Part shown: piece by piece, positions 32,358 to 40,302 of the stretch | Layout of the letters: each line of letters begins with the position of its first letter | Position numbering within the stretch: the stretch's first letter is position 1 | Assembly (NCBI GenBank): GCA_965232515.1 | Contig: CBDDPY010000002.1 | Coordinates: 2,752,001-2,816,000 of the forward strand | Direction: 5' to 3' | DNA: 64,000 nucleotides | Source of the DNA: Alphaproteobacteria bacterium | GTDB taxonomy: Bacteria; Pseudomonadota; Alphaproteobacteria; GCA-2731375 | The notes under the pieces: generated by a model | What the model was told of the DNA's origin: nothing | The model's database searches: none | The model's input: only the letters and a program-made list of their open reading frames with translations | Made by a program: the position numbers and the translations under genes

Positions 32358-33476
32358 CTAGTTGCTGCCGTAACGAGCCATGTTCATTTTGTCGACCTCG
32401 GCGCTGATGCCGTCGACCTCGGCCCACAAGTCATCGACCAGCTTGCCGTCGATGCCGAAGTCCGTGGTGATCCATTGCTTCCAGGCCGGGCGGGCCAGCG
32501 CCGCCATCTTCTCCTTCTCGGCCGCGGCGAGGATGTGGCATTCCTTGAATTCCTTGCAGGACGCGTTCCAGCCCTGAACCGCGGCGAGCGCGGCGATACC
32601 GTGCGAGATCTGCACCGCCTCGCGGGCCGAATTGACAATCACCTGCTGGTAGTTCTCGGGCAGCGACTGATACCAGTTCTCGCTGACCATCCAGGAGATC
32701 GAATTGTAAACGTGGCCGCTCCAGGTGGTGTAGTCGTTGACCTCCCAAAGCTTGAAGGCGCGGCTGACGCCGGGCGCGTTGAACTGACCGTCGGCAAGAC
32801 CGGTGCCAAGCGCGGTGACCACTTCGCCCCAGGGTAACGGCGTCGCCGAGGCGCCGAGCGCCTTCATGGTGGCGACATGGGCCGGGTTCTCCTCGACGCG
32901 GATCTTCAATCCCTTGATGTCGTCGACGGTCTTGATCAGCCGCTTGTTGTTCGTGAACGCGACGAAGCCGCCGCCGTCATCGAAGGTGCCGAGAAAGCGC
33001 AGCTTGCTGGAGGCGATGGCGCCCTTCATGAACTCGGCGTGCCAGGGGCCGTCGAAATAGGCCCGGGCCACGGCGTAGTTCGGAAACAGGAACGGCGTCG
33101 TGATGATCTGGTACTCGCGATAGAAGGACGACATGGCGCCGGACGACATCACGGCCGACTGCAGGGTCTTACCGACCTGCGCCTCCTTGCCGTTCTCGAC
33201 CTCGGAGCCGAGCGCGCCGCCGCCGAATATCTGCACATCGATGTCGCCGTCGGTCGCGGCCTCGACCAGCGCTTCGAAATGCACCAGCGCCGGATGAACC
33301 TCGTTGTTGGTCAGATCTTCCGGCAGCAGGTGCGCGATGACCATCTTGTATTCGGCGGCCTGCGCCGCCGGTACGGCGGGCCCGACCGTCAGCATCGCCG
33401 TCAAACCAAGGCCGATCGCGACCGCCGTCGCGCGAACGCCTTTGCGTGTCACTTGTCTGTCGAACGCCAACGTCAT
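32358..33476 (-). CDS. dctP: TRAP transporter substrate-binding protein
   Basis: Signal peptide; 'GGALGSE', 'IKGLKIRV', 'GASATPLPWGEV' and 'DGQFN'. Confidence 0.92.
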   Translation of the reverse strand: MTLAFDRQVTRKGVRATAVAIGLGLTAMLTVGPAVPAAQAAEYKMVIAHLLPEDLTNNEVHPALVHFEALVEAATDGDIDVQIFGGGALGSEVENGKEAQVGKTLQSAVMSSGAMSSFYREYQIITTPFLFPNYAVARAYFDGPWHAEFMKGAIASSKLRFLGTFDDGGGFVAFTNNKRLIKTVDDIKGLKIRVEENPAHVATMKALGASATPLPWGEVVTALGTGLADGQFNAPGVSRAFKLWEVNDYTTWSGHVYNSISWMVSENWYQSLPENYQQVIVNSAREAVQISHGIAALAAVQGWNASCKEFKECHILAAAEKEKMAALARPAWKQWITTDFGIDGKLVDDLWAEVDGISAEVDKMNMARYGSN

Positions 33477-33510
33477 AACGACCTCCCAACCCGTTCAGTT
33501 TTTCCAATAA

Positions 33511-33566
33511 AATTCGATTTATCTGATGAAAGTATGCGCAAGGCGGCCCTCGCGGTAAATCGAATT
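33511..33566. promoter_or_regulatory. inverted 11-bp repeat upstream of dctP (possible operator pair)
   Basis: AATTCGATTTA (33511-33521) and TAAATCGAATT (33556-33566). Confidence 0.4.
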
Positions 33567-33606
33567 CGTTGCCGCGGTCCGACGTCGGCGTGTCGCCGGC
33601 GGTTTC

Positions 33607-34200
33607 CTAGTGCAGCAAACGCCGCAAGGTCTGCTGATCCGGCGCGCCCGTGGCGGTCAGCGAATTGTCCCGCTGGAAGCTCTGCAACGCGGCCTTGGTG
33701 GCAGGGCCGAAGGCGCCGTCGACGCTGCCCTGATAGTAGTTTCGTTCTTTCAGCGCCTGTTGCGTGCGCCGCAGGGTCTCGGCGTAGAGGTAGGTTCTGC
33801 CCTGCTCGCCCGGCAGCTCGAGCAGCTTCGAGCGGACGGCGATGCGCTCGTCTTTCAGCTTGCCGACCAGCGCCACCACCACATCGGCGAACCGGTCATC
33901 AGGGTTGTTGCTGCAGTGACTGCCGATCATTCTGGCCAAGAGGTCCGGGCTCTCGAAGGACAGCACGTCGAACGTGTCCGGTGAGAGGTGGTTGTAGGCC
34001 GAGACATAGCCCTCCAGCCACCCGCCGAACTGATAGAGCCGGTTCGTGCCGTTCTTGGCGGCATCGACGAACTGCGCGCAGTTCAATCGTCCGATGCCTT
34101 TCAGGGCGAAGGCGCCGTCCTTGTCGGCGGCGGACGCTATGGGCATCGCCAGCCAAAGAAACGCGGTTGCAAGGATCAATCTATGCGCGGTGGCGATCAT
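33607..34200 (-). CDS. periplasmic protein: two-Cys helical (HdeA/Rap1a-like) domain plus C-terminal peptidoglycan-binding domain
   Basis: Signal peptide ending 'ASA'; 'CAQF...GWLEGYVSAYN...CSNNP'; PG_binding_1 'QQALKERNYYQGSVDGAFGPATKAALQSFQ'. GGAGAG RBS before ATG 34200. Confidence 0.75.
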   Translation of the reverse strand: MIATAHRLILATAFLWLAMPIASAADKDGAFALKGIGRLNCAQFVDAAKNGTNRLYQFGGWLEGYVSAYNHLSPDTFDVLSFESPDLLARMIGSHCSNNPDDRFADVVVALVGKLKDERIAVRSKLLELPGEQGRTYLYAETLRRTQQALKERNYYQGSVDGAFGPATKAALQSFQRDNSLTATGAPDQQTLRRLLH

Positions 34201-34254
34201 CTCTCCACGAAGCTCCCGAATTGTCATTCTTCCCGCACGGCCCGGCGCCGGTGG

Positions 34255-35529
34255 TCACCAGAGTCGGATCGGAAACGCCAGGGTCGCATCCAGGTCGGGC
34301 GCGTCCGACGTCAGGCCGACGCCGAGGCTGAAGTCGACCGAGGTCTGGTCCGTCAGGATGTAGGAAAAGCCGAACTGGAACTTGCCGACGGTGCCGGACG
34401 AGCCGGGCACGTCGAAGCCGTCGACGGTGCTCTTGCTCTGGAAATCCTGGCTCCAGCCGAAGTTGATCGACAGATCCGTGCTGAGCGCCACGGCCGACGC
34501 GATGCTGATGCCGACGATGTCGCCGGGGTCGACGTCGCCCACGGGCTTGTCGTCTTCGAGATTGAAGGTATAGCTGAGCGAGGCGATCAGCACGGCCGGG
34601 TCGACCGCCTTGACGAAGGTCACGGTCGGACGGATGGAGTGAAAGCCGGTGCCGAGCGCCAGATCGGCGTCGTTCTCGAACGGATCTTCCGCGGTCGGCG
34701 GTTTCCATTCGATGCGTGCCAATATGTCGGGCCAAGGTCCGCGGGCGAAGAAGACCTGATTGCTGAGGCCGATCTGGATGTCGCCGATGCCGTCGTTCTC
34801 GTCGTCGATCTCCTCGGCCGGCTGCGAGGCCGTAATGCGCTCCGAGCTGACGTAGCGGTAGGGGATGCTGATGTCGGCCTGGCTGTCGAAGGGCAGGCCG
34901 ACCCGGGCGCTGAACTCGCCGATCAGCGTGTCGCGCCGGACGCGCTCGGAAACGATGTCGCCGATCACCAGCACCGGCAGCAGCGCGAAGCCCTCGATGC
35001 TGATCGCGTCGAACGAGGAGTGCGAGTAGGTATAGCTGGTCTCGACCTCGAGGCCGCCCGGCGGCAGCAACAGGAGGTTGCGCCGCTGCAGCGCCGCCTC
35101 CAGGCCCCGGAGGTCTTCGCGGTGGATCACGGCGCCGGTTGAATCGTCCTGCGCGTCGGGCTCGGCCTGCGCGGCGGGCTCGGCCTGCGCCTGCGCGAGC
35201 GGCGGTTTCGGGCGCGGCGCATAGCGCGGCCCACCGAGCGATCCGTCCGGTGTCCGCACGCGCCCGATGCCGTTGATGACGTTGCCGAGATAGCTCGGCG
35301 CAACCGCCGGCGTCAGCGACAGGTTGATCTCGGGCTCGTCATCGCGTTGCGCGCGCTCGCGTTCGAGCTCCCGCGTCAGCGTGCCAACCTGGCCTTCAAG
35401 CCGCTCGATCCGGTCGAGCAGTTCCAGGATCAGCGTGTCGCGCGTGTCGTCGCTTAACGCCTGACCGAAGGCCGGCCCCGCGGCCAAGCCGATACCCGTC
35501 AGCAACGCCGCGAACGCCCGGTGCATCAT
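34255..35529 (-). CDS. fapF: FapF-like outer-membrane beta-barrel transporter with N-terminal coiled coil
   Basis: Signal peptide; coiled coil 'LILELLDRIERLEGQVGTLTRELE'; barrel motifs 'LLPPGGLEVETSYTY', 'GIGDIQIG', 'LGTGFHS', 'DPAVL' and 'GLTSDAPD'; ATGA overlap with the C39 peptidase gene. Confidence 0.78.
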   Translation of the reverse strand: MMHRAFAALLTGIGLAAGPAFGQALSDDTRDTLILELLDRIERLEGQVGTLTRELERERAQRDDEPEINLSLTPAVAPSYLGNVINGIGRVRTPDGSLGGPRYAPRPKPPLAQAQAEPAAQAEPDAQDDSTGAVIHREDLRGLEAALQRRNLLLLPPGGLEVETSYTYSHSSFDAISIEGFALLPVLVIGDIVSERVRRDTLIGEFSARVGLPFDSQADISIPYRYVSSERITASQPAEEIDDENDGIGDIQIGLSNQVFFARGPWPDILARIEWKPPTAEDPFENDADLALGTGFHSIRPTVTFVKAVDPAVLIASLSYTFNLEDDKPVGDVDPGDIVGISIASAVALSTDLSINFGWSQDFQSKSTVDGFDVPGSSGTVGKFQFGFSYILTDQTSVDFSLGVGLTSDAPDLDATLAFPIRLW

Positions 35530-36344
35530 TGCCCGGCGGCATCGAGCCCGCTGCCCGATAGCGATACGGATTGATTGACGATGGAGGTGGTGAAATCGGT
35601 GCCGAAGCCTTCCAGCACCGAGGTAATGCGGCCCGAAAGGGAGCGGCGGGTGCGCAGCTCGAGCCGCCGGCTCATCAACGCGATGTTCCGGCGCTTGTCC
35701 GGAAACAGCAGCTCGACCCGCTCGAGTTCCAGCTCATGCCGGTCGGCACTTTCGGCGCCGCCCGAGCCGTCGAGGATGAAGAAGCCGATGCCGTCCTGCC
35801 AGGCATCGAGGAACTTGTCCCTGCGGATCACCGCATTGCCGACGGCGGGATCGGCGACAAAGACCCGGTCGCCCTTGACGTCCCGGAAGATGACGAAGTG
35901 ATTGAAGCCGAACAGGAACACCGGCACGATCGCCGGCATGTTGAACTCCTGCAGATCCTCGAGCGTCAGCTCGGCATAGCCTTTGGCGTCAAGGCCACGG
36001 GCGACGGCATACCGTTTCAGATCGAGCAGTGAGAAGCCGTCCCGCAGGATCGCGTTCAGCGACCGGCCGGACACCGGCACCAGCGTCTCAACGATCTCGC
36101 GTTCCTCGACCTCCAGGCCGTGCTGATAGCGCAGGATGGTCGCCAACGCGGCGGCACCGCAGGTGAAGTCCCAGTTCTGCCGAACCACCTGATTCTGGCG
36201 GATCTCCTGCAGCGACACGACCGACTTCGTGAAGCGTTGGCCGTTGATGCGAAAATCGGCAGCGTCAGCCGCCGGCGCCGCCGCGGCAACGATGCCGCAG
36301 AACACCAGGACTGACGCCGCTACAAGTCCACATGCAGATCTCAT
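35526..36344 (-). CDS. fapD: stand-alone periplasmic C39 family cysteine peptidase (FapD-like)
   Basis: Signal peptide; 'VRQNWDFTCGAAALATIL' (Cys), 'GFSLLDLKRYA', 'NHFVI' (His) and 'VADPAVGN' (Asp); no ABC domain. Confidence 0.88.
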   Translation of the reverse strand: MRSACGLVAASVLVFCGIVAAAAPAADAADFRINGQRFTKSVVSLQEIRQNQVVRQNWDFTCGAAALATILRYQHGLEVEEREIVETLVPVSGRSLNAILRDGFSLLDLKRYAVARGLDAKGYAELTLEDLQEFNMPAIVPVFLFGFNHFVIFRDVKGDRVFVADPAVGNAVIRRDKFLDAWQDGIGFFILDGSGGAESADRHELELERVELLFPDKRRNIALMSRRLELRTRRSLSGRITSVLEGFGTDFTTSIVNQSVSLSGSGLDAAGQ

Positions 36345-36351
36345 CCCGATT

Positions 36352-36789
36352 TTACTGAAACCCTCCGAGATTGGTCTGCGTCAGATTGTTGACCGTCGAA
36401 TCGACATTGATGTTCAGGTTCATGAGAACCTGGATCACCGCGTTGGCGGCATTGAGATTGACCAGGGCGCTGAGGTTCTGCTGCGCGCTGTCTGACACGT
36501 TGACGCTGCTGGTGACCGTGTTGGTCACGAAGGTCTGCGTCGGTTCCACCACTCCGATCGGAATGGCGCTCAATGTCACGTCCCCGGTGCCATCGACGGT
36601 GAACCGATTCCCCCCGACATCGTCGATCGCAAAGCTGAGTTGATTGGGCGCCGTGCTGGCCACTTCAAACGCGCCGGCCTTCACGGCGTCCAGTTCGTCG
36701 TCTGTCATCTCGCGGCCGCCGGCCTGGCTGACGCCGGCGGCCAACGAGAGACAAGCAACGAGTCCGACTAGCAGTCTTCCATGCGACAT
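36352..36789 (-). CDS. secreted small Asn/Val-rich repeat protein (putative FapE/nucleator-like subunit)
   Basis: Signal peptide ending 'SQA', leader 'EMTDDELDAVKAG' and one repeat 'VNVSDSAQQNLSALVNLNAANAVIQVLMNL'; GGAG RBS. Confidence 0.7.
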   Translation of the reverse strand: MSHGRLLVGLVACLSLAAGVSQAGGREMTDDELDAVKAGAFEVASTAPNQLSFAIDDVGGNRFTVDGTGDVTLSAIPIGVVEPTQTFVTNTVTSSVNVSDSAQQNLSALVNLNAANAVIQVLMNLNINVDSTVNNLTQTNLGGFQ

Positions 36790-36841
36790 GGAGGTATCTC
36801 CCGTCGTTCGAAGCTCGCTAAACCCCCGGAACGGCCGTTGC

Positions 36842-37828
36842 CTAGAACCGTCCCGTAATCACGTTGCTTTGACGCACTGTCCGCGATGAGGTCGTGAACG
36901 ACCCGCCGCAGCACCGGTTGACCCAAAGGTTCGAGCCCGTGCCGACGGCGCTGGAAGCCGCGTTGACGATCTTCAGGCCGGTGGCGTTGCTCTGCGCGGC
37001 GCCCGACAGCGTGACGTCGTCATCGGCGACCTTGGTGATGTCGCCGTTGCCGAGCGAGATCACTTCACCGGTCAGGCCCGTGCCTTCGGCTTCAAGCACG
37101 CTCGCGGCCGCGACGGCGGGCGTCGACGACGTGCCGATGTTGCGATCCGCCGTACAACCGCCACCAAAACAGAAGGCGGCATCGACCGGATCACCTTCCG
37201 ACCCGACTTCGAGGCCTGGACCGGAGAACTCGAACGGCCCAACTTCGATGCCGCCGGCATTGAGGTCTATAAAGGCCTCGCCAGCGACCGCGATATCGGT
37301 GTTGTTGGGCACCGACACCTCGATGACGCCAAGCACGTCGATTTCGAACTGCGCCTGGCTGGCCGAAACCGAACTGGTCGTCTGGTCGGTGTCGAGCGTG
37401 CCGGCCGCGGTCACGGTCGTGAAGTTGTTGAGCGCACCGGCGCCGGCATTCTGCGTCCGACTGGCGACGATCTCGTTGACCTGACTTGTGTCCGCGATCG
37501 TGTTCGAGAAGCTGGAGCTCCCCACCGCGCCTTCTTCGCCATTCTGAATGACGCTGATATTGACGGCGCTACCGATCGCGCTGTCAGCGCTGTTGAACAG
37601 CTCGAGGCCCGTTGCACCCTCCTGGGCATTGCCGTCCAGGTTAATTTCGCCGCGTGCGGAGATATTCACATCTCCGTCGCCCGCCTGGATCACGCCGCCA
37701 CTGAAGTCGGTCTCGCCACCGACAACCTGGGCGAGGCTGTTGTCGGTCATCTCGACCGGACCGGCAAACGCCGGCGTCGCCAGCAGGGCAATCACGCCGA
37801 CCCCTGCCGCTAGTTTTGCTAAAGTCAT
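36842..37828 (-). CDS. secreted Gly/Ser/Thr/Asn-rich two-repeat protein (putative fibre/amyloid subunit 2)
   Basis: GAGGAG RBS; signal peptide ending 'AFA'; 'EMTDNSLAQVVGG'; two ~32-aa repeats; 'NRCC'; C-terminal 'GRF'. Confidence 0.72.
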   Translation of the reverse strand: MTLAKLAAGVGVIALLATPAFAGPVEMTDNSLAQVVGGETDFSGGVIQAGDGDVNISARGEINLDGNAQEGATGLELFNSADSAIGSAVNISVIQNGEEGAVGSSSFSNTIADTSQVNEIVASRTQNAGAGALNNFTTVTAAGTLDTDQTTSSVSASQAQFEIDVLGVIEVSVPNNTDIAVAGEAFIDLNAGGIEVGPFEFSGPGLEVGSEGDPVDAAFCFGGGCTADRNIGTSSTPAVAAASVLEAEGTGLTGEVISLGNGDITKVADDDVTLSGAAQSNATGLKIVNAASSAVGTGSNLWVNRCCGGSFTTSSRTVRQSNVITGRF

Positions 37829-37933
37829 CACCGTCTCCTCAAGAGCATTACCGCGCGGTCCCTGCTCGACCGTGTTTGTGTCGTGCCGACCGCGCTGTCT
37901 CATTACGTTCCCGTTCGTCTAGCGCCGCCGGTC

Positions 37934-38959
37934 CTAGAACCGGACATGCACGCTGTTGAACTGGTTGAGGTTGTTGGCGCCGCCGCTGAACGACCGCGAG
38001 CAGCAACGGTTGACCGACAGGTTCACACCGCTGCCCACGACGCTCGACGCGGCATTGACGACCTTCAGACCGGTGACGCCCTGCTGCGCGTTGTCGGTCA
38101 GGGAAACGACATCCTCGGTCGAGACCTCGATGCCGCCGCCGATGCCGTCTTCGCCTTCGCCGTTGCCGAGGCTGATTACTTCGCCGTGCAGGCCCTGGCC
38201 ACTGGCTTCGACAACCGACGCCGCGGCAACGGCCGGTCCTGACGTCGTGTCGTTTTCGCGACTGGCGTTACAGTTGCCGCCGGTCACGTAGCAGCCGGCG
38301 CCTTCGATGCCGGCATTGAGACTCGGTCCGTTGAGCGAGAAGACATCGACGTCGACGGAGAACGTCTCGATGTTGACCGTGGCGTCGCCTGCCATGGCGA
38401 AGCCCGTGCCTGTCGGCGCCGACACTTCAACGAGTCCGAGCACGTCCACGTCGATGGCGCCGGTGCTGACCGATGAGCTGTTCGTCGTGTTGTCCGTGGT
38501 CGCGATGCCGCTCGTGGTTGCGGTGGTGTAGTTGATGAGCGATTCCGCACTGGCGCTGTGGGCCGAGCTGAGCGTGATGATGTTTTCCTGGATCAAGTCC
38601 AGCGTCGAGTCGCTGGCCGAGCTGGTCGCGCCGGACAATGCCTCGAGACCGTTCTGCTCGACCGCGAGGTTGATACCGCTACCGATGTTGGAATGCGCCG
38701 TGTTGAACACTTCCAGCCCGGTCGCCATGCTCTGGGCGTCGCCCGAGAGATCGACGTCGCCGTTTTCGGTAAGCGTCACATTGCCGTCGCCGGCCGCGAT
38801 GATGCCGCCGGTGGGCGCGAGCGGGGTTTCGACGCTGAGCTCGCCCCCGACAACGCGCGCCAACGCGTCATCGCCCATTTCCTTCGGCGATCCAGCAAAC
38901 GCCGTTGCCGCGCCGAGGCACAGCACGCCGACCGCTGGCGTGAGGTATTTGAATGCCAT
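37934..38959 (-). CDS. secreted Gly/Ser/Thr/Asn-rich two-repeat protein (putative fibre/amyloid subunit 1), paralog of 36842-37828
   Basis: GAGGAG RBS; signal peptide ending 'AFA'; 'EMGDDALARVVGG'; two repeats; 'NRCC'; C-terminal 'VRF'. Confidence 0.72.
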   Translation of the reverse strand: MAFKYLTPAVGVLCLGAATAFAGSPKEMGDDALARVVGGELSVETPLAPTGGIIAAGDGNVTLTENGDVDLSGDAQSMATGLEVFNTAHSNIGSGINLAVEQNGLEALSGATSSASDSTLDLIQENIITLSSAHSASAESLINYTTATTSGIATTDNTTNSSSVSTGAIDVDVLGLVEVSAPTGTGFAMAGDATVNIETFSVDVDVFSLNGPSLNAGIEGAGCYVTGGNCNASRENDTTSGPAVAAASVVEASGQGLHGEVISLGNGEGEDGIGGGIEVSTEDVVSLTDNAQQGVTGLKVVNAASSVVGSGVNLSVNRCCSRSFSGGANNLNQFNSVHVRF

Positions 38960-39330
38960 GGATTCTCTCCTCAACTACCGTGGTTGCAATCGATTCCAGT
39001 CACACCCTGGCGTCAGGGTGCACGATCCGATGCGCTGAAGAGGGCTTCAGACGTGATATGTCGCCACAAGGGCTTAGTATGGAATTTATTCGAGTATTGG
39101 TTTAGTCATGTCGCCCCCTACCGCGCCCGGAGTATCTGTTCCTATGACTTGATACCGTCATGTACCCTTAAGGCGACTACTTTCTTAATATTAACAAAGC
39201 CGAATTTCATTTGTGTGACCAAGAAGTGACATTTCCGAATATTTGGCCATTGACACACCTCAGCGGCATGCGGGGAGGTCATGGCAGCGCTGCGGATTAA
39301 TCGTTTTGCCAAGAGTGGCGCGCATACTAA

Positions 39331-40302
39331 GTGGATGATCCTGAGGCGTTGAAACGCCGAACCGGAGAACGACCCATTACATCCGCCGTTGAGCGTACCG
39401 CCCCGTCGCAGGTGGCGGCATTGCGCGAGCCCGATAGCCGCGACGTGCTGATCGGCATCGGCTTCATGTGCCTGGCGGTCTGCGCACTGCCGGTCTTGAA
39501 CGCGTCCGCCAAGGTGCTGGTGCTGAGCTATCCGGTGGTGCAGGTGATCTGGGCCCGGTTCGCGGGCCACCTGCTTTACGTGCTGATCGCCTTTCTTCCG
39601 CGGCACGGCTGGCGCGTGTTCAAATCGCGCAGTCCGATCCGCCAGCTCGTGCGCTCGACGCTGTTGCTGGCCTCGACCGTGCTGTTCGTCAACGCCCTGC
39701 CCCATCTGCCGCTGGCGACGCTGTCGGCGATTACCTTCACGGCGCCCTTCATCGTCACCGCGCTGTCCGTGCCGATGCTGGGCGAACGCGTCGGCATCCG
39801 GCGCTGGTCGGCCGTTGCCGTCGGCTTTATCGGCGCGCTGATCATCATCCGGCCCGGCACCGAGTCGGCGCATTGGGCGATGCTGCTGGTGATCGGCAGC
39901 GCCAGTTGCTACGCCGTCTACCAGATCCTGACGCGACAGCTCGCCGCCGTCGACCGACCGGAGACCACCATGGTCTATACCGCAATCGTCGGCACCATCG
40001 GCATGAGCTTCGTCCTGCCGGCCCACCTGACCTGGCCGACGGAGACATCGCATTGGCTGCTGTTCGCCGGGCTTGGGCTGTTCGGCGGTCTCGGCCACAT
40101 CTTCGTGGTGAAGGCACTGCAATACGGGCCGGCGTCGGTGATCGCGCCGCTGGTCTATGCCGAGCTGCTGGGGGCAACGTTGCTGGGTTATGCGATCTTC
40201 GGCGATTTCCCTGATGCCATGACCCTGCTGGGCGCCGCCATTATCATCGCCTGCGGACTCTACATCGCCTATCGGGAAGGCGTCCGCCGCCGCGAAGGCT
40301 AA
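39331..40302 (+). CDS. DMT/EamA family transporter
   Basis: About 10 TM segments; 'FTAPFIV', 'LGERVG..RW' and 'IFGDFPD'. Start uncertain. Confidence 0.88.
   Translation: MDDPEALKRRTGERPITSAVERTAPSQVAALREPDSRDVLIGIGFMCLAVCALPVLNASAKVLVLSYPVVQVIWARFAGHLLYVLIAFLPRHGWRVFKSRSPIRQLVRSTLLLASTVLFVNALPHLPLATLSAITFTAPFIVTALSVPMLGERVGIRRWSAVAVGFIGALIIIRPGTESAHWAMLLVIGSASCYAVYQILTRQLAAVDRPETTMVYTAIVGTIGMSFVLPAHLTWPTETSHWLLFAGLGLFGGLGHIFVVKALQYGPASVIAPLVYAELLGATLLGYAIFGDFPDAMTLLGAAIIIACGLYIAYREGVRRREG

Follow-up and report, generated by a model that had tools for sequence, protein, structure and literature searches.

The activity of the C39 peptidase FapD is essential for secretion of the Fap amyloid, and in Pseudomonas UK4 its C38A exchange is reported to abolish secretion (PMC5557850). 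In the statements that the respective papers devote to it, the FapD target was 'unclear' in 2017 (PMC5557850) and 'yet to be determined' in 2018 (PMC6173800), and in 2025 FapE/FapF were only 'thought' to fill this role (PMC12822426). Rouse 2017 (PMC5557850) suggested processing of FapE at GG/GA motifs, yet in the relevant portion of that paper the Fap proteins are said to be without canonical C39 sequences, and the corresponding section of PMC3223724 treats C39 only as the leader peptidase of type I secretion systems. Our searches of an open-access library did not turn up any description of a C39 leader that follows a Sec signal. Here we describe a locus with an arrangement of this kind in a 64,000-nucleotide stretch of an alphaproteobacterial genome (contig CBDDPY010000002.1, positions 2,752,001 to 2,816,000; hereafter the window, meaning the whole stretch of DNA that was analysed). 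On the minus strand of the window, an operon encodes three cargo proteins that carry a short leader-like segment (the tag) behind a signal peptide, a stand-alone C39 peptidase and a FapF/FilC-like barrel. We consider it reasonably likely that the cargos mature in two steps, Sec export followed by C39 cleavage of the tagged proteins, within a Fap/Fil-type fibre system.

Leader-like tags in three exported cargo proteins

The cargo genes and their pro-peptides are listed below, the cuts being predictions from the sequence. P1 and P2 denote the last and the second-last residue before the cut (-1 and -2), and P1' the first residue after it (+1).

37934..38959, minus strand: large cargo A (P0001, 341 amino acids), with signal peptide, tag, two low-complexity repeats and a Cys-containing middle
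38843..38893, minus strand: pro-peptide of cargo A, residues 23-39, with M(-12), L(-7), V(-4), G(-2) and G(-1); predicted cut between G39 and E40
36842..37828, minus strand: large cargo B (P0002, 328 amino acids), a paralogue of cargo A with 46% identity
37715..37762, minus strand: pro-peptide of cargo B, residues 23-38; predicted cut between G38 and E39
36352..36789, minus strand: small cargo (P0003, 145 amino acids), from a family of about 130 amino acids whose genes lie directly upstream of the C39 gene
36673..36720, minus strand: pro-peptide of the small cargo, residues 24-39, ending A(-2)G(-1); predicted cut between G39 and A40

A preliminary description of the window had claimed that all three cargos hide a bacteriocin-type double-glycine leader right behind a Sec signal peptide and had inferred that C39 cleaves every subunit. 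Translation of the minus strand returned the three 13-residue motifs exactly (38843-38881, 37715-37753 and 36673-36711), followed by E, E and A, respectively. The hand-read signal peptides end at A22 in cargo A, A22 in cargo B and A23 in the small cargo, and the tag begins 3-4 residues past these sites, so that the pro-peptides comprise 17, 16 and 16 residues. All three tags have hydrophobic residues (M, L and V) at -12, -7 and -4, as do the leaders of substrates of peptidase-containing ATP-binding cassette (ABC) transporters (PCATs); for the C39 domain of LahT these three positions are described as needed and Glu(-8) as not needed (PMC6363468), and Glu(-8) is found only in the tag of the small cargo. 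Canonical C39 sites are given as GG, GA or GS (PMC10885120). The G-G of cargos A and B at -2/-1 lies within this rule and the A-G of the small cargo outside it.

A pattern fitted to the three motifs had 3 matches in the genome (six frames, 7.4 Mb), all of them these cargos, which shows rarity only since the pattern was built from the motifs themselves. Of 181 matches to a looser pattern, 8 follow a signal-like stretch, and these comprise the three cargos again and five that read as membrane or enzyme sequence. Nor are the three tags independent of each other, because the large cargos are paralogues and the small cargo is related to both (hhalign 91.8%). Matches of the ComC leader family to the two G-G tags were weak and below the Pfam cut-off (E=0.19 for cargo A, E=0.26 for cargo B), and NCBIfam searches up to E=1 returned nothing leader-like on the cargos. 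Additional tagged proteins in the genome, for which the preliminary description had proposed a scan, did not appear in pattern and matrix scans, nor did any orphan tagged protein; the top background match of the matrix, with a score of 17.3, falls inside an ABC ATPase. The barrel protein P0005 has no tag above threshold (best 6.2 against 9), and neither does the peptidase.

Conservation of the tag and of its cleavage-site residues

A search with the small cargo returned 144 matches. With one long repeat protein left out, a loosely defined tag was present in 113 of the remaining 143, P2 being Ala in 92 of them and Gly in 14; the 113 include a few spurious cases, and the proteins without a tag are mostly fragments. 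Conservation was also assessed in a sample chosen independently of the tag, which comprised 80 metagenome loci collected with DNA patterns from the small cargo C-terminus and verified in tblastn searches that used the full-length protein. After four loci with a truncated N-terminus had been dropped, the tag, scored with a matrix that had been trained on the same family, proved to be kept in 74 of the 76 loci in which the small cargo N-terminus lies inside the contig, and one of the two misses has a tag further upstream. The larger upstream cargos in the 80 loci are tagged too, and no tag was found in their barrel and peptidase open reading frames. The C39 gene is present in 61/80 loci, and of the 48 loci that extend downstream by 1.5 kb or more, 45 encode both C39 and the barrel. 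Among 401 class-level genomes, the small cargo occurs in 3, its own genome counted. The C39 peptidase alone, used as query of the genome contigs, retrieved 1 locus.

The residues at the predicted cut are less uniform than the helix. P2-P1 among 129 tags of this subtype is AG in 77, AA in 36, AQ in 8, GG in 4, AK in 3 and GL in 1, so with Ala at P2 in 124/129 the G-G of the window is a minority form. In cargo B the G-G tag is kept in 3/3 close homologues, and orthologues at one and the same gene position may end in either G-G or A-G. Bulky P1 residues are common to the small and large cargos of a locus, as seen for A-L in L020 and A-Q in L158, L160 and L162. The last three loci encode several multi-repeat cargos of 560-630 amino acids besides a small cargo, all with A-Q, and contain no C39 gene within the fetched DNA. 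Given the prevalence of Ala at P2 here, and the G-R/K and G-Q endings of FapE and Fil tags (see below), the tag is not really a double-glycine motif. Of the leader type proposed in the preliminary description, the hydrophobic -12/-7/-4 helix thus stands, and the double glycine does not; the tag works like a double-glycine leader but falls outside the definition of that family.

A predicted complex between tag and C39 peptidase

35526..36344, minus strand: stand-alone C39 cysteine peptidase (P0004, 272 amino acids) with a signal-like N-terminus (Sec); Q56, C62, H149 and D165; leader groove L106/L107/K110

The peptidase matches PF03412 with 68.5 bits (cut-off 22) and has the complete Gln/Cys/His/Asp set of active-type C39 enzymes. 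Catalytic and groove positions were assigned by alignment to LahT and PCAT1. In 55 C39 enzymes of the subtype, Q56 is conserved in 55/55, C62 in 55/55, H149 in 54/55 and D165 in 52/55. L106 and K110 align to A55 and I59 of PCAT1, which are described as the residues that receive L(-7) and L(-12) in its groove. Position 110 is Lys or Arg in 50 of the 53 enzymes of a broader alignment (A2), which consists of P0004 and 52 of 60 listed open reading frames after removal of 5 near-duplicates and 3 partial or divergent sequences, and it is Lys in 55/55 subtype enzymes. Canonical FapD-like peptidases in the same alignment display a leader-like C-terminal tail, [VILM]xDxEL[MLVI][DE]FGF, with Phe at P2 (16/53 rows; for example L002:11576-12301). 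This tail is a candidate autoinhibitory pseudo-substrate; most tails score below the tag threshold.

We co-folded residues 28-225 of the C39 peptidase with residues 24-58 of the small cargo, using an alignment of the small cargo with 110 of its 143 matches. In this co-fold, which the preliminary description had proposed as a check, the leader helix was placed in the leader groove and active site, with a score of 0.85 against 0.00 for the best control; the mark applied is reached by 116/157 solved complexes and by 2/215 mismatched pairs. Runs agreed in at least 76% of contacts, with a predicted local distance difference test (pLDDT) value of at least 58 for the partner. In the model, L33 is placed against L106/L107/K110 and M28 against G122/Y123, with D30 close to K110; C39 residues 59-63 and 147-150 face peptide residues 32-41. 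Since similar complexes have been solved (6MPZ, 6V9Z), the co-fold demonstrates likeness and neither binding nor cutting. We regard binding of the tag by the C39 peptidase as very likely and as the better supported step when compared to cleavage.

These data suggest the following sequence of events. Sec would export each cargo, and signal peptidase I would remove about 22 residues. The exposed, acidic pro-peptide of 16-17 residues would then form a short helix, and in the model its residues M(-12), L(-7) and V(-4) occupy the leader groove of the periplasmic C39 enzyme, where an Asp(-10)-Lys110 contact may take the place of one hydrophobic residue of the PCAT1 groove. Cys62 is predicted to cut after P1 at the three sites listed above; P2 would have to be small (Ala/Gly), and P1 would be loosely defined (G, A, R, K, Q, L). 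The cut would free a beta-strand N-terminus, and the mature subunit, by analogy with Fap, would pass the FapF-like barrel and polymerise. The tag would be a periplasmic variant of the bacteriocin leader, and its recognition would rest on the helix.

Tags in FapE proteins, Fil subunits and further loci

Considering that the three cargos are homologous, the helix might be a structural part of the mature subunit that is common to them only through paralogy, its likeness to bacteriocin leaders arising by chance; short acidic helices of this pattern do arise by chance, as illustrated by the ABC ATPase mentioned above. Comparison with other proteins argues against this explanation, since the tag also heads FapE-like proteins and the DUF6160 subunits of Fil pili. 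FapE aligns with the small cargo over 16 tag columns only and shows no detected body homology, and DUF6160 proteins likewise are tagged without detected body homology to the window cargos. In addition, the structure predicted for the small cargo (mean pLDDT 73) has a helix at residues 30-35 and a beta body that begins at residue 40, the +1 position, so that the predicted fold starts after the tag, and the DUF6160-related pilus model 9XFV (see below) likewise lacks the tag. We give the structural explanation very little weight.

A wider survey started from 46 of 401 phylum-wide genomes that had a match; with relatives these gave 60 regions and, together with L001, 61 loci. These were scanned with a scoring matrix trained on the small-cargo family, in which P3-P1 are unscored and the threshold is 9. 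The matrix detected 35 tags in 31 of the 61 C39 loci. P2, which is unscored, was Gly or Ala in 33 of these 35 tags near C39 genes when compared to 11 of 40 background matches among 3418 signal-like open reading frames elsewhere in the genome (Fisher p about 1e-9, which exaggerates the significance, since the loci include many kin). In FapE-like proteins, P2 is Gly and P1 is Arg or Lys in 22/22 cases, and the tag of DUF6160 subunits ends G-Q. In two loci, L031 and L073, the C39 gene is duplicated in tandem with flanking tagged genes.

The variability of P1 (G, A, R, K, Q, L) would also be compatible with a pro-peptide that is removed by a different protease, in the periplasm or outside the cell, or that is lost through self-processing as the subunits assemble, with the C39 enzyme acting on something else; FapF has indeed been proposed as a FapD target (PMC5557850). 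However, both the -12/-7/-4 pattern with its modelled groove contacts, which is specific to C39 domains, and the tight linkage of tagged genes to C39 genes speak against such a division of labour, which we therefore judge highly unlikely.

The genome itself contains two further C39 and barrel loci. The first (L002, G000:C2:7104000-7123000) is a canonical fap-like locus, the FapE tag of which ends G-R, and its six FapC-like paralogues, among the entries listed, have no tag behind their signal peptides. By labels that are partly hand-read, a sigma-54-type activator lies upstream, and a peptidoglycan-binding gene lies between FapE and FapF. In the other (L003, G000:C2:6170000-6189000), the opposite strand carries the barrel gene, the operon includes a gene for an ABC-type binding protein, and the gene after C39 has an internal tag ending G-A.

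Evidence on cutting from related systems

The helix could instead be a docking or hand-over tag by which the C39 protein chaperones cargo to the barrel while cutting few substrates or none, perhaps only the G-G cargos or the barrel. Non-catalytic C39-like chaperone domains are described, the co-fold reveals docking only, Ala at P2 dominates the subtype, and similar helices in FapA and FapB have been seen intact. On the other hand, the catalytic residues are invariant in the subtype and required in FapD, P2 stays small in spite of being unscored, G-G and A-G tags replace each other in orthologues of one gene position, and the 9XFV chain starts at +1. This chain is a 173-residue native environmental pilus subunit related to DUF6160 proteins (E 7.5e-7; one DUF6160 query, L055, missed it and another matched), and by alignment its first residue is the Asp that directly follows the G-Q tag of the DUF6160 family. 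On balance, we consider this docking function unlikely and retain two-step maturation as our preferred interpretation. Within it, cleavage appears likely for the two G-G cargos and only somewhat more likely than not to occur for the A-G cargo.

Several observations weigh against cleavage and have to be set beside this estimate. The sequence of 9XFV was built from density with EModelX (PMC12956863), and its start is consequently the first modelled residue and not a sequenced N-terminus; moreover, the protein belongs to another, Fil-type, subtype. For FapE of Pseudomonas UK4, none of the published peptides starts before residue 72 (supplementary table), which leaves a gap at residues 1-71 that is wider than expected from a predicted cut at about residue 40 and that a reviewer, in a remark in the review file, regarded as possibly stochastic. 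In the same published UK4 data, tryptic peptides span the leader-like helix of FapA, which has Ser at P2, and that of FapB, which has no Gly, in uncut form (14 and 4 counts, respectively). Further points concern the residues around the predicted cuts: Ala at P2 breaks the GG/GA/GS rule in 124/129 subtype tags, Arg, Lys or Gln at P1 likewise falls outside it, the cleft of PCAT1 is reported to be very narrow, and P1' is Glu in both large cargos, whereas an acidic P1' is described as blocking one PCAT, MrsT (PMC10885120). Finally, 30/61 C39 loci gave no match at threshold, several of which show a tag by alignment, and the co-fold may reflect memory of the LahT/PCAT1 complexes and would not separate a substrate from a decoy.

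The claim of the preliminary description that every subunit is cut is therefore not general, considering that the FapC-like proteins of L002 are untagged and that the similar Pseudomonas FapA and FapB helices were seen uncut. An internal leader-like helix ending S-G is found in FapA-like proteins (L065:6968-7420, L074:7267-7716), and the FapB-like proteins in alignment A6 have a conserved leader-like helix without Gly in the linker before the last repeat. It is possible that the FapA and FapB helices act as decoys. More speculatively, FapD/FilB-type peptidases could be prepilin-peptidase-like maturation enzymes for Sec-exported fibres (Fap amyloid, Fil pili and the family in the window) that read one helix code, in which Gly or Ala at P2 would mean cutting and release (FapE, Fil subunits, window cargos) and Ser, Gln or Phe would mean binding without cutting, making FapA, the FapB linker and the FapD tail decoys or autoinhibitors that time assembly. 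We offer this generalisation tentatively and consider it less likely than not.

The operon and its other genes

34255..35529, minus strand: FapF/FilC-like outer-membrane barrel with N-terminal coiled coil (P0005; PF13557)
33607..34227, minus strand: exported peptidoglycan-binding protein (P0006; PF01471), with homologues also within other fap-like operons (L002, L056, L060)

The three cargo genes are co-directional, and their starts (38959, 37828 and 36789) are preceded by ribosome-binding-like GGAG/GAGG sequences. Upstream of cargo A lies an AT-rich intergenic stretch (window 38980-39330), which is likely the control region of the operon; no sigma-70-like promoter was found in 33400-39400. 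Paralogues of P0006 also occur away from C39 genes (G000:C2:3552508, 3556263 and 5477883), and one of them adjoins a gene for a secreted protein of 815 amino acids.

The large-cargo family ranges from about 207 to 670 amino acids with a variable middle. Cargos A and B (window 36842-38959) share a two-Cys segment in mid-protein that is kept in the family consensus. Towards the C-terminus they also have a Cys-Cys pair, which was seen only in close relatives. No Pfam or NCBIfam family matched cargo A above cut-off. A fold search with the small cargo model returned generic beta-sheets only (best Z 6.0), PDB sequence searches with alignments A1, A3, A7 and A9 gave no significant match and no FapC structure, and the best ESM Atlas hit (0.76) was uninformative. 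A structure model of cargo B from a 6-row alignment had a pLDDT of 27.8 and was not used.

Comparison with known systems

The tag offers candidate cut sites at residue level and a groove model for the window locus, FapE and Fil subunits, and with them a place of recognition and cutting that can be tested in a family of fibre-secretion proteases. It further suggests that C39 enzymes exist with specificity beyond double glycine, and it provides a signature for finding the cargo of Fap/Fil-like systems. The present analysis contributes a subtype with Ala at P2, the change to Lys110 in the groove, a contact-level model and the observation of uncut FapA/FapB helices.

When compared to the C39 domains of PCAT/AMS transporters (LahT150, PCAT1-CtA, ComA-ComC), the window enzyme has the same catalytic residues and, in the model, the same groove, but it is stand-alone and exported, its operon contains no ABC transporter, and in place of I59 of the PCAT1 groove it has Lys, where such enzymes mostly have Lys or Arg. 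The tag and the double-glycine leaders of PCAT substrates have the -12/-7/-4 hydrophobic helix and a small P2 in common. They differ in that the tag follows a signal-peptide-like stretch, whereas the PCAT leader is the N-terminus of a Sec-independent precursor and is processed by a C39 domain that forms part of an ABC transporter, and in that P2 of the tag is often Ala and P1 often large.

With the Fap system of Pseudomonas (FapA-F), as described by Rouse 2017 (PMC5557850), the locus shares secreted cargos, a periplasmic C39 peptidase (FapD) and a channel composed of coiled coil and barrel (FapF), and FapE-like proteins bear the window-type tag. On the other hand, the window C39 reaches 118 bits against a FapD cut-off of 330 and the barrel 111 against a FapF cut-off of 700, which makes them homologues and not equivalogs. 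The window cargos match FapB/FapC profiles at hhalign probabilities of 0.4-4%, in repeat-like segments and without significance; one cargo-FapB comparison weakly aligns the tag to the internal helix of FapB (2%), which is a lead only, and the small cargo matches FapE over the tag only. Moreover, 3/3 window cargos are tagged at the N-terminus, whereas FapC-like proteins are untagged. With the Fil system (FilB C39, FilC barrel, DUF6160 subunits, 9XFV) the locus has in common tagged subunits encoded upstream of C39 and barrel genes, in the same gene order as in the window; it differs in that the window cargos have no DUF6160 match and in its scores (FilB 118.8 against 475, FilC 51 against 630). 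Collectively, the operon appears by analogy to work like a Fap/Fil secretion locus, the cargos of which would constitute a separate, uncharacterised family of repeat proteins.

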